Origin: a virus
Lineage: Duplodnaviria > Heunggongvirae > Uroviricota > Caudoviricetes
IMG/VR virus record: IMGVR_UViG_2681813321_000016
Reading direction: 5' to 3' (one strand)
DNA: 8,261 nt
The notes under the pieces are model-generated. The model made no database searches and was not told where the DNA came from. It saw only the letters and a list, made by a program, of their open reading frames with translations. Positions within the stretch are counted from its first letter, which is position 1. Each line of letters opens with the position of its first letter. The position numbers and the translations under genes are program-made. Positions 1-8,261 of this stretch are shown piece after piece.

Positions 1-26
1 AATGTTAAAACCAAGGTTCAAGGTAC
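1..26. other. Candidate degenerate hix-like site at the left window edge
   Basis: AATGTTAAAACC-AA-GGTTCAAGGTAC: the central AAAACCAAGGTT is identical to the centre of Salmonella hixL as I remember it, but the outer arms are poorly conserved. At the window edge, so context is missing. Confidence 0.3.
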
Positions 27-114
27 TGTAGTAATGTTTTCCGCTTCAGGGAAAAAATAGCATCCAACCGCAGCACGTTCTTGCTTAAGACGTGCTGCGG
101 CATAATCCCAATGA

Positions 115-465
115 TTACTCCCTGACAGGGTTCGTAGGCCACTCAATATCAGGTGCAGTTGATGTATCAACACGGTTCAGCAACACCCGATACTTTTTCC
201 AGGCTTCCACCACCAGCACGACAAGATGCCGCATACAGTGAACCAGTCAGTCCAGTTTTCAGACAACCAGTGCGTCACCTTTTTGAAGGCGCTTTAAAGC
301 ACGTTTTAATCCAGGTCGGCCTGTCCTTGTTCCGCTTAATTTATCTTCAAATATTTGTTCATATCCTGCACAAACAAGAGCGTTTCGTTGCAGATCTGTA
401 TTCTGGTCATTTGTTGATACCCTTACATAGCCAATCAGCACGCTGAATCTCCCGTCCAAAAGCAC
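115..465 (-). pseudogene. pin: Serine DNA invertase (Gin/Pin/Cin/Hin family) pseudogene; intact N-terminal 68 codons (259..465) then in-frame stops and decayed remnant
   Basis: Minus-strand ORF 259..465 reads LIGYVRVSTNDQNTDLQRNALVCAGYEQIFEDKLSGTRTGRPGLKRALKRLQKGDALVV, nearly identical to the N-terminus of Gin/Pin-type invertases as I recall them, including the catalytic-serine VRVST motif. The expected W after VV is TGA; the continuing frame reads [39 protein letters not shown], still weakly alignable to the invertase core but with a second stop. Likely GTG start at 439-441 with GGGAGA 6-7 nt upstream. Symbol is family-level only. Confidence 0.75.
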
Positions 466-495
466 AAATCATGCCATACAGGCCAGAAACCGCCA

Positions 496-521
496 TTATC
501 TAAAACCTCGGTTTACGAGAA
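496..521. other. Crossover site 1 (gix/hix/pix-like 26-bp site) adjacent to the invertase pseudogene
   Basis: TTATCTAAAACC-TC-GGTTTACGAGAA: two imperfect 12-bp inverted half-sites around a 2-bp core, matching the architecture and much of the sequence of the Gin/Hin crossover sites as I recall them. It sits about 30 bp from the invertase start and is the inverted partner of site 3. Confidence 0.75.
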
Positions 522-668
522 CTCGGCACAAGCGGGGAGAAAATACCGTTACTCAGTACAGCGAATACCTGGACTAATCGACAAACATTCAGCGGTGGCC
601 TTTCTGGTGAACTATCCGGCAATGCTTCTACAGCTGCAAAATTAAAAACTGCCAGGAAAATAAGCAAT

Positions 669-1454
669 GTGGCTTTTGATGGTTCCTCCGATATCACATT
701 AAAAGCAAGTCATGTTGGTGCGTTTGCCTTAGGGAAAACAGGAAGCACCGTTGCGAATGATAAAGCAGTTGGATGGAACTGGAGTAGCGGAGCCTATAAC
801 GCAACTATTAGTGGTGCATCAACGTTAATTATTCATTTTTATATGGGAGAAGGAAGTTGTCCTGCAGCTCAGTTTCGGATTAATTATAAAAATGGCGGTG
901 TTTTTTATCGTTCAGCCCGTGATGGTTATGGTTTTGAAGCCGACTGGTCCGAATTTTACACCACCACCAGAAAACCTTCAGCAGGAGATGTTGGTGCACT
1001 GCCGTTATCTGGTGGTCAACTGAATGGTACACTGGGTATCGGAACATCCAGTGCTCTTGGCGGTAATTCGATTGTATTGGGTGATAATGACACGGGCTTT
1101 AAACAAAATGGCGATGGTAATCTGGATGTTTATGCTAATAACGTCCATGTTATGCGCTTTGTCTCCGGAAGCATTCAAAGTAATAAAACCATAAATATTA
1201 CAGGGCGTGTTAACCCCTCGGATTACGGTAACTTTGATTCCCGTTATGTGAAAGATGTTCGACTTGGTTCACAGCAATATTATGGAGTGAACAACTGGCA
1301 AACATGGTATTTCCGGTGCCCTTCAGGTCATGTATTGTCTGGTATTAATGTTCAGGATACAGGGTCTAACTCTGCCGATAATATAGCGGGCGTTTATTAC
1401 AGACCCGTTCAAAAGTATATAAATGGCACCTGGTATAATGTAGCGAGCGTTTAA
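669..1454 (+). CDS. Tail fiber variable C-terminal tip cassette SvA, silent mirror copy (frame open from 504, no own start or promoter)
   Basis: Translation is identical to the C-terminal 261 aa of the long minus-strand fiber ORF. The frame is open from just after a TAA at 501-503 inside site 1; the ORF track start at 669 is a GTG. Contains the fiber motif [22 protein letters not shown] and C-terminal [14 protein letters not shown]. Confidence 0.7.
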
Positions 1455-1455
1455 T

Positions 1456-1989
1456 ATGATGCACTTAAAGAACATAAAAGCGGGTAATGCTAAAACACTG
1501 GAACAGTATGAGTTAACAAAGAAACACGGAGTTATCTGGCTTTACTCTGAGGACGAAAAAAACTGGTATGAGGAAGTGAAAAACTTTCAGCCAGACACCA
1601 TAAAGATTGTTTACGATGAAAATAATATTATTGTTGCCATAACCAAAGATGCCTCCACACTTAACCCTGAAGGTTATAGCGTCGTTGAGATTCCTGATAT
1701 TACCGCCAACCGGCGTGCTGACGACTCAGGTAAATGGATGTTTAAAGATGGCGCAGTCATTAAACGTGTATATACCGAAGAAGAGTTGCGCCTACAGACG
1801 GAAAACCAGAAAAAAATATTATTACAGCAGGCCAGAGAAAAAACGCAGTTCTGGCAAACACAGCTTACTTTGGGGATTATCACTGATTCAGACAGACAGC
1901 AACTGATGAACTGGATGCGATACGTGCAACAGGTTGAGACAACTGATACCTCGGTTCTTCCTGTAACATTCCCGGAACCACCAGAATAA
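1456..1989 (+). CDS. tfa: Tail fiber assembly protein TfaA (mirror copy)
   Basis: 177-aa ORF starting 2 nt after the SvA stop (translational coupling); [30 protein letters not shown]... is typical of Tfa/U-type tail fiber assembly chaperones; identical to 5035..5568 on the minus strand. Symbol is family-level only. Confidence 0.8.
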
Positions 1990-1992
1990 GAA

Positions 1993-2010
1993 AAGGCCCG
2001 TACGGGCCTT
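1993..2010. terminator. Bidirectional intrinsic terminator between convergent tfa genes
   Basis: Perfect palindrome AAGGCCCGTACGGGCCTT (GC-rich stem GGCCC, loop GTAC) with an A-run upstream and T-rich tract downstream on both strands, placed between the stop codons of the convergent tfaA and tfaB. Confidence 0.6.
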
Positions 2011-2019
2011 AATTTGTTG

Positions 2020-2547
2020 TTATTCTGGTTTCTGTGGCCATTCAGGCTTTGCAGTATCCACACGGCTGACCATAACGCTGTAGCGTTCCCATGATTCCAG
2101 TCGTGTGCGTTCCTCATCAGTTGCCATATTCAGTCTGACAGCACGTTCCAGCGGTTGAATCACAGACTCCGCTTCGGAAAGCAAAGCGGCTTTTTGTAAC
2201 TCTGCCTGCTGTTGCAGTTCCTGTTTTGTATATTCCCGCTTTACTACTTTACCATCCAGAAACTTCCAGTTTCCCGAGATATCGGCGCGACGGTTGGCTG
2301 TTATATTCGGTAACTCAACAACACTTAACCCGTCAGGGTTAAGTGTTGATACGTCTTTCTCAATACAACGAATAATCCCCTTCTGGTCATAAGCTATTTT
2401 TAAAGTATCATCCTGAAAGTTTTTTAATTCGTCATACCAGTTTTTACCGTCTTCTGTATATAGCCAGATAACGCCAGCTTTTTTCGTAAGCTGATACTGC
2501 TCAATGGTTTTGGGGTTTCCGGCGGTAATATTTTTCAGATGTTGCAT
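2020..2547 (-). CDS. tfa: Tail fiber assembly protein TfaB (mirror copy)
   Basis: 175-aa [33 protein letters not shown]..., a paralogue of TfaA along its length; identical to 4477..5004 on the plus strand. Symbol is family-level only. Confidence 0.8.
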
Positions 2548-2562
2548 ATATTCTCCTGATGG

Positions 2563-3438
2563 CTATGCCTGTTCAACGTTATACCAGTTACCAGAAATGT
2601 ATTTTTGTAGTGGTCGTGACACCATCCAGTCATCTCCATCAACCTCACCAATAATTTGCAATCCTGTTGTCACATGACCATTACCTGGTTCGCAAAGTCC
2701 TCCGCGATATAATGTGTCAGAACGTCTGCCTCCCAGACGCACATTTCTGATAAAAGAACTATTCAGGTAATCATTTAAGTTTGAACCCCAGCACCCACCA
2801 AATATATTTCCATCGGTGTTATAACGGACGCCACCCGCAATAAGAGCACCCGGTGAAATAAAGGATTTATCGTTCGGGTTAAACTGCCATAAAGCATCAT
2901 TACCGCCATCGCCACGCATATGAATACATGGAACCGGAAATCCATACTGTTCTGTCAGTAAATACCCAAAGCTGACCGCGCCGGGATAGCCCTGTCCATT
3001 GCGAATGGACAAGCCCTTAACTATCGGCACGTAATGACCACCAGGAGTGGGATTCCAGGCAAACTGCGTCTGAACAAAAGGCGCGGTGGCATTATTCAAC
3101 TGGTCTGCAAATGCGCCACTTCCATCAGGAATTATTCCCTGATGAATATATGCAACCCGCTTATAAAAATCAGCAGATGCGGGTTGAAGCCCAAATGCCA
3201 GTTGTCCATTTGAATAGAATAAAAGGACACCGTCGCCGCCCTGTTTAATACCAGTGTCGTTATCTCCGAGAGTAATGGAATTACCGCCCAGTGCGTTATC
3301 TGTACCAAGCGCCAGCCCACCATCAATTTTGGCCCCGTGGCTGACAGATATAGCACCTGTTCTCAGATTTATAGCGAATGGCCTTAATGGGCCTATATCA
3401 CCGTTTTCGCCTTGTCCTTCAGCCGTCGGAACCTCGGT
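2563..3438 (-). CDS. Tail fiber variable tip cassette SvB, 5'-truncated silent mirror copy
   Basis: The ORF track gives 2563..3099 (TTG start), but the frame is open up to a TAA at 3439-3441. The encoded sequence is identical to the C-terminal part of the plus-strand ORF 3412..4461 yet lacks the first ~54 codons of that cassette, which lie in the unique 161-bp spacer. Confidence 0.6.
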   Translation of the reverse strand, partial: TEVPTAEGQGENGDIGPLRPFAINLRTGAISVSHGAKIDGGLALGTDNALGGNSITLGDNDTGIKQGGDGVLLFYSNGQLAFGLQPASADFYKRVAYIHQGIIPDGSGAFADQLNNATAPFVQTQFAWNPTPGGHYVPIVKGLSIRNGQGYPGAVSFGYLLTEQYGFPVPCIHMRGDGGNDALWQFNPNDKSFISPGALIAGGVRYNTDGNIFGGCWGSNLNDYLNSSFIRNVRLGGRRSDTLYRGGLCEPGNGHVTTGLQIIGEVDGDDWMVSRPLQKYISGNWYNVEQA

Positions 3439-4461
3439 TTACAGGAAACGGTAAACAAGGCTGGTAACGCCGTTCAGCGTTCCGGCGATAAAATGACCGG
3501 AGAACTGAAAATTGGCACGGTGAATGCGCTGCGAATTTTCAATGATGCCTTCGGTCTTATTTTCCGTCGTTCAGAAGATTTTCTTCATTTCATTCCGACG
3601 GCTGAAGGACAAGGCGAAAACGGTGATATAGGCCCATTAAGGCCATTCGCTATAAATCTGAGAACAGGTGCTATATCTGTCAGCCACGGGGCCAAAATTG
3701 ATGGTGGGCTGGCGCTTGGTACAGATAACGCACTGGGCGGTAATTCCATTACTCTCGGAGATAACGACACTGGTATTAAACAGGGCGGCGACGGTGTCCT
3801 TTTATTCTATTCAAATGGACAACTGGCATTTGGGCTTCAACCCGCATCTGCTGATTTTTATAAGCGGGTTGCATATATTCATCAGGGAATAATTCCTGAT
3901 GGAAGTGGCGCATTTGCAGACCAGTTGAATAATGCCACCGCGCCTTTTGTTCAGACGCAGTTTGCCTGGAATCCCACTCCTGGTGGTCATTACGTGCCGA
4001 TAGTTAAGGGCTTGTCCATTCGCAATGGACAGGGCTATCCCGGCGCGGTCAGCTTTGGGTATTTACTGACAGAACAGTATGGATTTCCGGTTCCATGTAT
4101 TCATATGCGTGGCGATGGCGGTAATGATGCTTTATGGCAGTTTAACCCGAACGATAAATCCTTTATTTCACCGGGTGCTCTTATTGCGGGTGGCGTCCGT
4201 TATAACACCGATGGAAATATATTTGGTGGGTGCTGGGGTTCAAACTTAAATGATTACCTGAATAGTTCTTTTATCAGAAATGTGCGTCTGGGAGGCAGAC
4301 GTTCTGACACATTATATCGCGGAGGACTTTGCGAACCAGGTAATGGTCATGTGACAACAGGATTGCAAATTATTGGTGAGGTTGATGGAGATGACTGGAT
4401 GGTGTCACGACCACTACAAAAATACATTTCTGGTAACTGGTATAACGTTGAACAGGCATAG
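3412..4461 (+). CDS. Tail fiber variable tip cassette SvB (complete cassette, currently in the OFF orientation)
   Basis: 349-aa ORF; the TTG at 3412 is probably not a real start, as the cassette proper begins at the site 2 core. Sequence after the site (QETVNKAGNAVQRSGD...) resembles the start of invertible fiber tips in e14/Mu/P1-type systems as I recall them. Contains ALGGNSITLGDNDTGIKQGGDG and C-terminal RPLQKYISGNWYNV. Confidence 0.75.
   Translation: MSFSRRNLGLQETVNKAGNAVQRSGDKMTGELKIGTVNALRIFNDAFGLIFRRSEDFLHFIPTAEGQGENGDIGPLRPFAINLRTGAISVSHGAKIDGGLALGTDNALGGNSITLGDNDTGIKQGGDGVLLFYSNGQLAFGLQPASADFYKRVAYIHQGIIPDGSGAFADQLNNATAPFVQTQFAWNPTPGGHYVPIVKGLSIRNGQGYPGAVSFGYLLTEQYGFPVPCIHMRGDGGNDALWQFNPNDKSFISPGALIAGGVRYNTDGNIFGGCWGSNLNDYLNSSFIRNVRLGGRRSDTLYRGGLCEPGNGHVTTGLQIIGEVDGDDWMVSRPLQKYISGNWYNVEQA
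3422..3447. other. Crossover site 2: hybrid site with conserved core and right half but degenerate left half
   Basis: GCCGTCGGAACC-TC-GGTTTACAGGAA. The right half and core match sites 1 and 3; the left half is instead the mirror image of SvB coding sequence (reverse complement of 3591-3602). Same orientation as site 1, inverted relative to site 3. In the SvB frame it encodes NLGLQE, paralleling YLGLRE at site 3. Confidence 0.65.
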
Positions 4462-4476
4462 CCATCAGGAGAATAT

Positions 4477-5004
4477 ATGCAACATCTGAAAAATATTACC
4501 GCCGGAAACCCCAAAACCATTGAGCAGTATCAGCTTACGAAAAAAGCTGGCGTTATCTGGCTATATACAGAAGACGGTAAAAACTGGTATGACGAATTAA
4601 AAAACTTTCAGGATGATACTTTAAAAATAGCTTATGACCAGAAGGGGATTATTCGTTGTATTGAGAAAGACGTATCAACACTTAACCCTGACGGGTTAAG
4701 TGTTGTTGAGTTACCGAATATAACAGCCAACCGTCGCGCCGATATCTCGGGAAACTGGAAGTTTCTGGATGGTAAAGTAGTAAAGCGGGAATATACAAAA
4801 CAGGAACTGCAACAGCAGGCAGAGTTACAAAAAGCCGCTTTGCTTTCCGAAGCGGAGTCTGTGATTCAACCGCTGGAACGTGCTGTCAGACTGAATATGG
4901 CAACTGATGAGGAACGCACACGACTGGAATCATGGGAACGCTACAGCGTTATGGTCAGCCGTGTGGATACTGCAAAGCCTGAATGGCCACAGAAACCAGA
5001 ATAA
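4477..5004 (+). CDS. tfa: Tail fiber assembly protein TfaB, cognate chaperone of SvB
   Basis: 175-aa ORF with AGGAGA Shine-Dalgarno 4 nt upstream of the ATG; identical to 2020..2547 on the minus strand. Symbol is family-level only. Confidence 0.85.
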
Positions 5005-5013
5005 CAACAAATT

Positions 5014-5031
5014 AAGGCCCGTACGGGCCTT
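5014..5031. terminator. Bidirectional intrinsic terminator (mirror copy of 1993-2010)
   Basis: Same palindrome AAGGCCCGTACGGGCCTT followed by TTTTCTTATTC on the plus strand; lies between convergent tfaB and tfaA. Confidence 0.6.
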
Positions 5032-5034
5032 TTC

Positions 5035-5568
5035 TTATTCTGGTGGTTCCGGGAATGTTACAGGAAGAACCGAGGTATCAGTTGTCTCAACCTGTTGCAC
5101 GTATCGCATCCAGTTCATCAGTTGCTGTCTGTCTGAATCAGTGATAATCCCCAAAGTAAGCTGTGTTTGCCAGAACTGCGTTTTTTCTCTGGCCTGCTGT
5201 AATAATATTTTTTTCTGGTTTTCCGTCTGTAGGCGCAACTCTTCTTCGGTATATACACGTTTAATGACTGCGCCATCTTTAAACATCCATTTACCTGAGT
5301 CGTCAGCACGCCGGTTGGCGGTAATATCAGGAATCTCAACGACGCTATAACCTTCAGGGTTAAGTGTGGAGGCATCTTTGGTTATGGCAACAATAATATT
5401 ATTTTCATCGTAAACAATCTTTATGGTGTCTGGCTGAAAGTTTTTCACTTCCTCATACCAGTTTTTTTCGTCCTCAGAGTAAAGCCAGATAACTCCGTGT
5501 TTCTTTGTTAACTCATACTGTTCCAGTGTTTTAGCATTACCCGCTTTTATGTTCTTTAAGTGCATCAT
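5035..5568 (-). CDS. tfa: Tail fiber assembly protein TfaA, expressed copy downstream of the fiber gene
   Basis: 177-aa ORF whose start lies 2 nt past the stop of the fiber gene on the minus strand (coupled); identical to 1456..1989. Symbol is family-level only. Confidence 0.85.
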
Positions 5569-5569
5569 A

Positions 5570-8261
5570 TTAAACGCTCGCTACATTATACCAGGTGCCA
5601 TTTATATACTTTTGAACGGGTCTGTAATAAACGCCCGCTATATTATCGGCAGAGTTAGACCCTGTATCCTGAACATTAATACCAGACAATACATGACCTG
5701 AAGGGCACCGGAAATACCATGTTTGCCAGTTGTTCACTCCATAATATTGCTGTGAACCAAGTCGAACATCTTTCACATAACGGGAATCAAAGTTACCGTA
5801 ATCCGAGGGGTTAACACGCCCTGTAATATTTATGGTTTTATTACTTTGAATGCTTCCGGAGACAAAGCGCATAACATGGACGTTATTAGCATAAACATCC
5901 AGATTACCATCGCCATTTTGTTTAAAGCCCGTGTCATTATCACCCAATACAATCGAATTACCGCCAAGAGCACTGGATGTTCCGATACCCAGTGTACCAT
6001 TCAGTTGACCACCAGATAACGGCAGTGCACCAACATCTCCTGCTGAAGGTTTTCTGGTGGTGGTGTAAAATTCGGACCAGTCGGCTTCAAAACCATAACC
6101 ATCACGGGCTGAACGATAAAAAACACCGCCATTTTTATAATTAATCCGAAACTGAGCTGCAGGACAACTTCCTTCTCCCATATAAAAATGAATAATTAAC
6201 GTTGATGCACCACTAATAGTTGCGTTATAGGCTCCGCTACTCCAGTTCCATCCAACTGCTTTATCATTCGCAACGGTGCTTCCTGTTTTCCCTAAGGCAA
6301 ACGCACCAACATGACTTGCTTTTAATGTGATATCGGAGGAACCATCAAAAGCCACATTGCTTATTTTCCTGGCAGTTTTTAATTTTGCAGCTGTAGAAGC
6401 ATTGCCGGATAGTTCACCAGAAAGGCCACCGCTGAATGTTTGTCGATTAGTCCAGGTATTCGCTGTACTGAGTAACGGTATTTTCTCCCCGCTTGTGCCG
6501 AGTTCTCGTAAACCGAGGTATTCGATAACGGCGGCAACGGTCGATTTCGCAAGAATATCCCGCCCAACTTTTGTCAGGGTTGCCAGACTGGCAACATCAT
6601 TCCCCGTAAAATACGGAAACCTGTCTGCCGCAGTAGCAAGCCCGGCCAGCGCCGTCAGGGTGGCATCTTTCGGTTGCTTACCCGCAAGCGCGTTAGTCAT
6701 GGTGGTCGCAAAATTCGGGTCGTTGCCCAACGCCGCAGCCAGCTCGTTCAGCGTATTCAGTGCGTCAGGCGACGAGTCCACGAGGGCAGCGATCGCAGCC
6801 ATAACATAAGCCGTGCTTGCGATTTGGGTATTATTCGTTCCCTGTCGCGCAGTTGGTGTTGTTGGCGTTCCGGTCAGTGCAGGACTATTTAAGGGCGCTT
6901 TCTTGTTCGTTTCACCCATTACCGCCTTAACCGCTTTTGGCGTTGCCGCCAGTGACTCGGAAGTGCTGTTGGTCGCACTGCTGAGCTGTACTATCCCCTT
7001 TTTCGTCGTGCTCGCATCCTCCAGCGCCACGGCGGATGCAATATCCTCTGCCCGTTTTGCTGCTGTCTCGGCGCGCGTTGCCGCGGATTCCGCCGTACTT
7101 TTGCTCTGAGCTGCCGCCGTCACACTACCAGCTGCCTCTGATGCTTTCATTGTTGCTGTCGTGGCACTACCTTTCGCTGCTGACGCTTGTCTGGTCGCCT
7201 CATCTTTTGAAGCAGACGCAGATGATGCCGATGACGCCGCTGAACTGGCTGACGATGCGGCTGCCGCCTTAGAGGAAGCAGCATTGTCTGCTGAAGTCTT
7301 TGCATTTGTTTCAGAGGTTTTTGCTGCAGAAGCAGACCTCGCTGCTGCAGTGGCTTGCTCAGTGGCTTTGCCAGCCTTCGTTGTGGCTGTTGAAGCGGAT
7401 GATGCGGCGCTTTCTGCCGATTTTCCGGCGGCGGTGGCACTGGCTGAGGCCTGCCCGGCACTTGTTGACGCGGCACTGGCAGACGACGCAGCCGCTGTTT
7501 TTGAGCCTGCCGCAGCCGAGGCGCTCTGTCCCGCTGCCGTTTCAGAAGACCTGGCGTTTGTCTCAGACGTCTTTGCCGCCTTCGCGGAATTGCCTGCCGC
7601 CGTTGCCGAGGAAGCGGCACTACTGGCGCTTGATGATGCGTTCGTTTCTGATGATTTCGCTGCCTCTTTTGAGGCCGCCGCATCCCGGGCTGAGGTGGCT
7701 GCTTCTGACGCCTTCGTGGTCGCGGCGGATGCAGAAGTGGCTGCTGATTGTTGTGACGCTGCCGCATTCGTTTCTGACGTTTTCGCCGCAGCGGCACTGG
7801 TAGCTGCCGCGCTTTTTGAGGACTCTGCAGCAGCAGCACTTTTCGATGCTTCACTGGCCTTTGTTGATGCCGTTCCTGCGCTGGAAGACGCTGACTGAGC
7901 CGACGACGCGGCCTGTCCGGCTGACGTGCTGGCGGCACGTGCTGAGGCTGCAGCATCGGTTGCATGAGTTACCGCCTCGCTGGCTGATGCACTGGCATCG
8001 CTGGCTGATTTTTTCGCGGCTGCCGTATTCTGTGCAACCGCGGAGGCGTTACGTGACACTTCTTCCACCATCTGCTCAAAGCGGCGCAGTGCCTCCGGTC
8101 GGACATCATCCTCCGTCATGGCACCGAGAAAATCATTCAGCGTACCTGGTCTGGAACCTTCATAGACGGTAATGGTCCCGGCATGTGAAGGCGGAAAACC
8201 TTCAACCAGCAGGGTGACGCTGTACTGACCATGCTCAACATCCATGCTGTAACGTCCGGCT
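5570..8261 (-). CDS. stf: Side tail fiber protein (constant shaft fused to tip SvA), 5'-partial; gene start lies beyond the right edge
   Basis: Minus-strand frame open from the window edge to a stop at 5570 (at least 891 aa). The N-terminal part ([47 protein letters not shown]...) and the Ala/Ser/Thr-rich repeats resemble lambda Stf/StfR-type fibers as I recall them; the [26 protein letters not shown] motif is typical. The constant part ends ...AAVIEYLGL at site 3 and continues into SvA. Symbol is family-level only. Confidence 0.9.
6503..6528. other. Crossover site 3 inside the fiber gene at the constant/variable junction
   Basis: TTCTCGTAAACC-GA-GGTATTCGATAA on the plus strand; its reverse complement TTATCGAATACC-TC-GGTTTACGAGAA differs from site 1 at two positions. 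Encodes IEYLGLRE in the fiber frame, the position where crossover sites sit in Mu G-segment/e14 P-segment-type systems. Confidence 0.8.
7050..8020. repeat. Low-complexity Ala/Ser/Thr-rich repeat region of the fiber shaft
   Basis: The fiber translation here is dominated by A/S/T with recurring KTSETNA, SASAA and ASEAA units. The compositional bias creates long spurious ORFs in other frames (7161..7898 +, 7147..7965 -, 7300..7803 +). Boundaries are approximate. Confidence 0.6.

Follow-up and report, generated by a model that had tools for sequence, protein, structure and literature searches.

Structure of the tail-fibre inversion locus

We analyzed a stretch of 8,261 nucleotides (the window) from the Caudoviricetes record IMGVR_UViG_2681813321_000016 of IMG/VR. 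It carries a Gin/Cin/Pin-type tail-fibre inversion switch with two perfect inverted arms (505-3431 and 3593-6519) and a hybrid crossover site at the inner end of the first arm, and the origin of this inverted duplication is the subject of this report. In the loci of its relatives, the host element is a lambdoid prophage at ompW, beside the trp operon. Judged from its sequence, the locus is the known switch of the EC958 'Phi4' type, with one constant part of the fibre (Sc), SvA-U_A and SvB-U_B as the alternative cassettes, an invertible segment of 3.1 kb, two 26-bp crossover sites and a dead local invertase. The open reading frames (ORFs) and the Pfam domains phage_tail_N, gp37_C and Caudo_TAP place the Sv and U cassettes (fibre C-terminus and assembly chaperone) in opposite orientation with one common Sc, a layout that matches those of Mu and P1. 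Throughout, the state with the recombinase-flank|SvA (R|A) junction is called B-on, and the state with the recombinase-flank|SvB (R|B) junction A-on.

At the left of the window lies the remnant of a gin-like serine invertase on the minus strand (262..441; PF00239 Resolvase, E value 2.9e-15), consisting of the first 60 codons followed by TGA stops and decay to about position 18. Since the local invertase is dead, inversion would be done in trans. The first native crossover site, s1, follows at 496-521, and the left arm, which is the extra inverted copy, begins within it. This arm is a perfect reverse complement of 3593-6519, with 0 mismatches in 2,927 nt when the window is compared with itself, and has Pfam hits to Caudo_TAP and gp37_C. 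It holds SvA (to 1454) and U_A (1456-1989) on the plus strand, then U_B (2020-2547) and a truncated SvB (2563-3431) on the minus strand, the latter without its first ~53 codons and without its own site. Between the arms is a plus-strand, single-copy spacer of 161 nt (3432-3592) made up of a site core and SvB codons 1 to ~53. Together with this spacer the right arm forms a native A-on segment, with SvB (to 4461, open from 3412) and U_B (4477-5004) on the plus strand and U_A (5035-5568) and an Sc-fused SvA on the minus strand. The side tail-fibre gene S (5570..8261, minus strand; PF08400 phage_tail_N) joins Sc (6516-8261), which runs off the window, to SvA; its ORF spans 5570-8245, and the gene encodes 941 aa in relatives. 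A perfect 18-bp palindrome, AAGGCCCGTACGGGCCTT, occurs at 1993-2010 in the left arm and at 5014-5031 in the right arm, where the U_A and U_B genes converge. Its sequence is unchanged by inversion, and it is probably a bidirectional terminator.

Crossover sites and the hybrid site

Three pattern matches to Gin/Cin/Pin-type sites were found in the window, compared with 0.01 expected by chance. The plus-strand site s1 (TTATCTAAAACC TC GGTTTACGAGAA; central TC at 508-509) combines a recombinase-side left half with an SvA right half, the junction typical of B-on. At the other end, the inverted native site s3 (6503-6528, minus strand) reads TTCTCGTAAACC GA GGTATTCGATAA on the plus strand, with the central GA at 6515-6516, and combines an SvA half with an Sc half. 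The central site, s2* (3422-3447, plus strand), reads GCCGTCGGAACC TC GGTTTACAGGAA and can be divided into GCCGTCGGAA-CC-TC-GGTTTACAGGAA, in which the CC, the central TC (3434-3435) and the right half are native and GCCGTCGGAA (3422-3431) is the reverse complement of 3593-3602 in SvB. An earlier note on this DNA had described just such a hybrid with a displaced SvB left half, and this description is confirmed. The mirror that it placed at 3591-3602 holds for 3593-3602 and is 2 nt too long, since CA at 3591-3592 does not mirror CC at 3432-3433.

Single-copy relatives (JJ1886, WS3294A and ten further loci) have CCGCCATTATCTAAAACC TC GGTTTACAGGAA at site 2. The alignment with such relatives that the earlier note had called for was run, and it recovered TTATCTAAAACC as the ancestral left half of site 2, in loci some of which are 100% identical to the window. 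We also looked for the left half GCCGTCGGAACC beside a single-copy segment, a finding that would have spoken against the reading in the earlier note; none was present in the relatives, which have TTATCTAAAACC or TTATCGAATACC. Both parental sequences have AA at 3430-3431, so that the joint lies between 3429/3430 and 3431/3432 and precedes the central TC by 2-4 bp. The proposal of a junction beside the crossover dinucleotide, with AA microhomology to the native half-site, is thus borne out by site 2 of the relatives. Taken alone the 2-bp microhomology is not significant, as ~16% of random joints have at least 2 bp. The left SvB copy does lack its start, as had been noted, by 161 nt, or ~53 codons if the Leu codon that spans the crossover is taken as the first. 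The 12-bp core ACCTCGGTTTAC is the sole stretch common to the R|A, R|B, Sc|A and Sc|B junctions, and the joint (3430-3432) falls within 1 bp of its left, outer edge.

For scoring, a weight matrix for half-sites was derived from the gix sites annotated in Mu, the cix sites annotated in P1 and the e14 pix sites located by pattern, in versions with and without the window's own sites. With the matrix from Mu, P1 and e14 sites only, s1 scored 33.6 bits and s3 32.0 bits. The hybrid site scored -12.0 for its left half and +12.4 for its right half; its total of 0.5 bits was the best in the window after s1 and s3. It does not have the two recognizable half-sites of a functional crossover site, its left half keeping just GGTT/AACC beside the centre. 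The hyb|A junction that an s2* x s3 isomer would contain, GCCGTCGGAACCTCGGTTTACGAGAA, was absent from all loci retrieved. We interpret the hybrid site as the scar of a non-conservative joint and not as a product of strand exchange by an invertase.

Composite structure of the window

The collection searched comprised 5,426 complete E. coli genomes, ~780 of which carry this switch. An R|A junction identical to s1, which is also that of EC958 Phi4_3prime, was present in 377 of them, and ~400 near-identical matches were consistent with R|B; among the matches listed, 40 of 40 start at the base that marks R|B. Since both junctions are this common among near-identical loci, the switch is, as far as genome sequences can tell, active on short time scales. 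Both orientations are also found within the WS3294A record and in published PacBio data.

The closest relatives are single-copy and 100% identical: WS3294A (loci L003 and L004), GCA_002207565.1 (L017) and GCA_052765905.1 (L020). The window is 98.7% identical to the version in sequence type 131 (ST131). Window positions 1-3431 match a B-on haplotype with 0 mismatches (L003, at the end of NZ_CP035819.1), and positions 3430-8261 match an A-on haplotype with 0 mismatches and 0 gaps (L017 and L020). In the window, B-on sequence extends from the recombinase flank to SvB codon ~54 and there meets A-on sequence, which extends from the site core to Sc. It can equally be described as a native A-on locus enlarged by 2,926 bp at the recombinase-proximal site, the extra inverted copy having the ordinary site s1 as one boundary and the non-conservative AA joint as the other. 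Both copies are error-free against three independent assemblies, and only the segment is duplicated, not its flanks. In exact-protein look-ups, U_A gave nothing but single-copy loci, and the 178-aa ORF of the truncated copy gave just short contigs cut elsewhere.

Several genomes were considered as further enlarged switches and set aside. E19 proved to be a noisy consensus and E138 an ordinary B-on locus, and H31 and H40, each with four SvB matches, had no second SvB copy within 14 kb of the switch. Two private truncations of SvB were seen elsewhere. In GCA_902502995.1 (CABWAA010000196.1), SvB is cut at the equivalent of window position 3635 and joined to 117 bp of unrelated DNA, and an ENA metagenome scaffold (L027) has a 113-bp internal deletion corresponding to window positions 3798-3910.

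Origin of the inverted duplication

The reading that we tentatively favour, giving it somewhat less than an even chance, is that the inverted duplication is a genuine and very recent replication error. The nascent strand would have copied through the core of site 2 and left its template there, paired with (or been exchanged at) the inverted core of site 3, and copied the segment backwards as far as SvB codon ~54, 161 nt short of a complete copy. It would then have returned to the vacated template at the first free base, leaving the AA joint at the core edge. Two equivalent histories may be envisaged. In one, a B-on locus would first have undergone tandem duplication, with the same AA joint, and then an inversion between s2* and s3; in the other, a single illegitimate switch would have taken place between two sister molecules, one of them B-on and the other A-on.

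When simulated on one A-on molecule, the two-switch model yielded all 8,261 bases exactly, and a simulated conservative deletion between s1 and s2*, centre to centre, restored the native 5,335-bp locus exactly. The two-template-switch history accounts for the position of the joint at the core edge, which would be a coincidence of a few per thousand under the tandem-duplication or sister-molecule histories. The features of a template-switch inverted duplication are all found here: an adjacent inverted copy, an asymmetric loop, microhomology, and a second boundary at a pre-existing inverted repeat. A real event is further supported by the high activity of the switch, the exactness of the composite, the single flanks and the zero base errors, unlike artefactual versions of this locus, which have indels or duplicated flanks. 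Replication-based inverted duplications at short inverted repeats are an established class (PMC4689423).

Set against this reading are the following points. The joint is private to the window and was absent from all collections searched. Its 35-mer had no match in scans of genome, viral and metagenome contigs (GTDB representatives, IMG/VR and JGI metagenomes), and when positions 3300-3720 (421 bp) and the whole window were compared by megablast with E. coli genomes, phages and plasmids, no match reached a coverage of 80%. Nor was there an exact-protein record for either of the ORFs that span the joint, 3412-4461 and 3254-3454. Zero divergence between the arms is also expected from an artefact, and the locus is documented to break long-read assemblies. 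The template-switch model was built after seeing the data, and inverted homologies of just 12 bp at a distance of 3 kb make a weak substrate for template switching. Finally, perfect inverted arms of 2.9 kb separated by 161 nt should not be stable in wild-type E. coli, on account of SbcCD and RecA.

A narrower version of the replication error, in which the crossover site itself nucleated a real duplication, seems to us doubtful, with perhaps one chance in four. Here a fork at an invertase-engaged, synapsed site would have switched between the two inverted cores. This comes close to the template switching at a recombinase-bound site that the earlier note had offered as one route; the switching part is compatible with the window, in that the model reproduces the sequence exactly, and the bound recombinase is a supposition. 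If this narrower version is true, DNA-invertase sites would be hotspots for fold-back duplication, such a duplication would be a first step from two-cassette switches to those with many cassettes and many sites, such as Min of p15B, and the half-degenerate new site may still recombine.

Possible assembly artefact of a mixed culture

The strongest rival holds that the hybrid site was not in the cell, and that sequencing or assembly of a culture of mixed orientation fused a B-on to an A-on copy. This could have come about in the assembly itself, through a chimeric or fold-back backbone read, or by forced circularization of a contig whose two ends ran into the segment from its two different flanks and were in opposite states. 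We hold it quite possible, though short of even, with little to choose between an artefact and a real event. It would explain a composite of two coexisting haplotypes with a private joint and identical arms. At its right edge, 3430/3431, the joint coincides with the divergence of the two haplotypes, and it is there that contig boundaries fall in graphs and alignments. Forde et al. (2014; PMC4134206) report that this locus was mixed ~50:50 in culture and gave spurious contigs, and they warn of artefactual duplications. Balanced heterogeneity is a known cause of misassembly, and some assemblers leave terminal duplications (PMC9980784; PMC13577107).

Related assemblies provide examples. The WS3294A assembly, 100% identical to the window, carries ~16.5 kb of prophage twice, from the tail genes to the methyltransferase. 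It is a RefSeq entry labelled 'complete, circular', in which the locus is B-on at the record end (L003, NZ_CP035819.1 4976165-4996164) and A-on, with frameshifted genes, at the record start (L004, 1-22000). The doubling looks like an untrimmed contig overlap that was missed as the ends differ by an inversion. The E19 segment (NZ_CM143898.1, 2400-6000) is garbled, being 84-88% identical to relatives with more than 70 gaps, although its flanks are 100% identical and the adjacent Sc fully matches that of JJ1886 (100%); this pattern fits a consensus from reads of both orientations. FDAARGOS_1264 (NZ_CP069488.1, 13990-17230) is a private B/B composite with R|B and Sc|B at its two sites and SvA missing, its SvB and U_B forming a 1.5-kb inverted duplication around a 192-bp spacer. 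There the join lies in a 10-bp identity between U_A and U_B, CATCAGTTGC, which creates a hybrid tfa gene ('frameshifted'); a TC insertion is present in the copy fused to Sc, and the junction is private to that assembly. It could be either a real A-on x B-on recombinant or a mixed-culture composite.

On the other hand, assemblers do not normally make a new adjacency at a 2-bp microhomology inside a gene, and we can name no pipeline that gives this exact structure. In WS3294A, SvB codon ~54 is not a repeat boundary, and there is no third SvB locus (the four places are two loci on two strands). The flanks of the window's segment are not duplicated, and zero base errors occur in the 8.2 kb of the window, in contrast to the three assemblies that are clear or possible artefacts. 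The probability that a random chimeric read would meet the core edge is ~0.1%. Missed-adapter or duplex fold-back reads were rejected as a source; these give a palindrome with no spacer, a misfit with the 161-nt asymmetry.

Invertase recombination and inherited three-site readings

The earlier note had also proposed that an invertase recombined the natural site with a pseudo-site inside SvB. In its fuller form, a Pin/Gin-type enzyme acting in trans would have used a cryptic SvB site much as Cin uses quasi-cix sites, which we consider very improbable. In its favour, just 2-4 bp separate the joint from the central dinucleotide, Cin is documented to recombine with quasi-sites, and the switch is very active in trans. 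The difficulty is the position of the joint. Serine invertases of this family make a 2-nt staggered cut and exchange strands at the central dinucleotide, and in the P1 record the crossover is annotated inside the central TT of both cix sites. The predicted product of a pseudo-site exchange is GCCGTCGGAATG followed by AA or TC and then GGTTTAC; the window instead reads ...GGAACC. The parent SvB has TG at the position of the CC (3432-3433), so at least two native left-half bases were kept, and since this native CC is retained, the exchange would not have been at the central dinucleotide.

The scan of SvB around 3577-3602 with the weight matrix, proposed as a further check, was run as well and detected no cryptic site at or near that position. 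The implied 26-mer at 3577-3602, GCCGTCGGAATG AA ATGAAGAAAATC, is without the AAACC/GGTTT core and has AA, not TC, at its centre. Its score was -45.5 bits, against +32 to +34 for real sites; among the 8,236 positions this is the 35th percentile. Shifting the register by up to 12 bp to either side raised the score to -13 bits at best (3585-3610), and that register would yield a different joint. For the pseudo-site route to work, the parent SvB allele would have to be GGTTCCGACGGC at 3591-3602, or Gin/Pin would have to cleave 4 bp off-centre. A run-off or break at an invertase-cleaved site was likewise rejected, as the known staggered cut would predict ends at 3433 or 3436, not at 3430-3432. The interpretation in the earlier note is therefore partly supported: judged from its letters, the joint is illegitimate, non-conservative and adjacent to a natural crossover site, as proposed, but was not made by an invertase.

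That the window represents a natural, inherited three-site multi-cassette switch like Min of p15B, with s2* as an evolved internal site, agrees with the three sites and four cassettes in one block and is next to impossible given arms that are 100% identical over 2,927 bp, an arrangement present in no other genome searched, an s2* left half without half-site similarity, and a fourth cassette that is truncated and not expressible.

Comparison with known systems

The nearest described system is EC958 Phi4, whose segment measures 3106 bp and whose invertase is severely truncated (Forde et al. 2014, PLoS One 9:e104400; PMC4134206). Its inversion was inferred to occur in trans, probably by the Phi1 invertase, and separate PacBio contigs were obtained for the two orientations, with ~50% of reads each (PMC4134206). 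The window has the same locus, the EC958 sites being ccgccgTTATCGAATACCTC GGTTTACAGGAA and ccgccaTTATCTAAAACCTC GGTTTACGAGAA. EC958 and ~780 other genomes have one segment and two sites, whereas the window has a second, inverted and truncated copy and a third, half-degenerate site. The switch resembles those of the Din family, namely Mu G/Gin-gix, P1 C/Cin-cix and e14 P/Pin-pix, in its imperfectly palindromic 26-bp sites with an AAACC NN GGTTT core, in its Sc and alternative Sv and U cassettes, and in the invertase gene beside one site; a single base separates native site 2 from Mu gixL. Unlike these, it has a lambdoid side-tail-fibre gene with Ala/Ser-rich repeats, a dead local invertase and the extra copy.

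Recombination of Cin with quasi-cix sites was reportedly described by Iida and Hiestand-Nauer in 1986 and 1987. The window shares with those events one natural site and a partner that is not a site. In the quasi-cix recombinants the join falls at the central dinucleotide; in the window it lies 2-4 bp beyond that dinucleotide, and the partner bears no resemblance to a site.

Tandem inversion duplications in Salmonella and the duplication, inverted triplication, duplication (DUP-TRP/INV-DUP) rearrangements in humans belong to the class of replication-based inverted duplications. Other members are origin-dependent inverted-repeat amplification (ODIRA) in yeast (PMC4689423) and U-turn-like inversions in organelles (PMC4417113). 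The window is like this class in its adjacent inverted copy, one boundary at short inverted repeats, a microhomology joint and an asymmetric loop. Members of the class are usually triplications (direct-inverted-direct), whereas here there are two copies; moreover, the inverted repeats here are recombinase sites, so that the 'homology' boundary could equally be an ordinary site-specific inversion. The window is also like documented misassemblies (Wick et al. 2023, PMC9980784; PMC13577107) in being a ~50:50 invertible locus with private aberrant structures in other 'complete' genomes. Those misassemblies have duplicated flanks, noisy consensus or broken graphs, whereas the window shows a clean insertion with a single new joint.

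Predicted consequences of the duplicated arrangement

A simulated s1 x s3 inversion flips just the spacer and leaves SvA on Sc, so a true duplication would lock the fibre on SvA unless the half-degenerate s2* still functions. Simulated inversion between s2* and s3 gives Sc-SvB and a direct tandem duplication. The switch as such has been described before; its duplicated three-site form, if real, is new and was made by a known kind of mutation. It would then be a fresh, zero-divergence example of an invertible tail-fibre switch gaining cassettes and sites, with the new joint coming from a replication error at the edge of a site core and not from the invertase. If the structure is an artefact, it serves as a warning that a ~50:50 invertible locus corrupts 'complete' E. 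coli assemblies in several ways, and that inverted duplications at such loci are not interpretable without reads.

Invertase remnant, probable enhancer and additional observations

The remnant is 96% identical to nucleotides 1-191 of Mu gin, after which the frame reads *KLD*L. Beyond the gin-like part (within window positions 18-465, minus strand), decay is seen as W to TGA and R to TGA changes. A functional serine invertase is thus not present beside the segment: just 60 codons of the Resolvase N-domain remain, with in-frame stops. The same truncated gene occurs in all relatives and matches the description of EC958 Phi4. In the P1 record the enhancer is annotated at cin nucleotides 19-90, which correspond by homology to ~352-423 in the window, and the remnant probably keeps the Fis-dependent enhancer there. 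Its retention may be the reason why this piece of the invertase persists in hundreds of genomes that still invert in trans.

The first 26 bases of the window, AATGTTAAAACCAAGGTTCAAGGTAC, contain an AAACC AA GGTT core and are among the ten best matrix scores of the window. They lie beyond the dead invertase, near what are tail-fibre assembly pseudogene fragments in relatives. This stretch resembles a crossover site that has decayed, perhaps one left over from an older switch.

Within Sc, positions 7150-7950 (minus strand) encode Ala/Ser/Thr-rich repeats (direct-repeat families D2 and D3) with periods in multiples of 21 and 42 nt. In relatives the length of the S gene is 2826, 2907 or 2937 bp, which suggests variation in repeat number.

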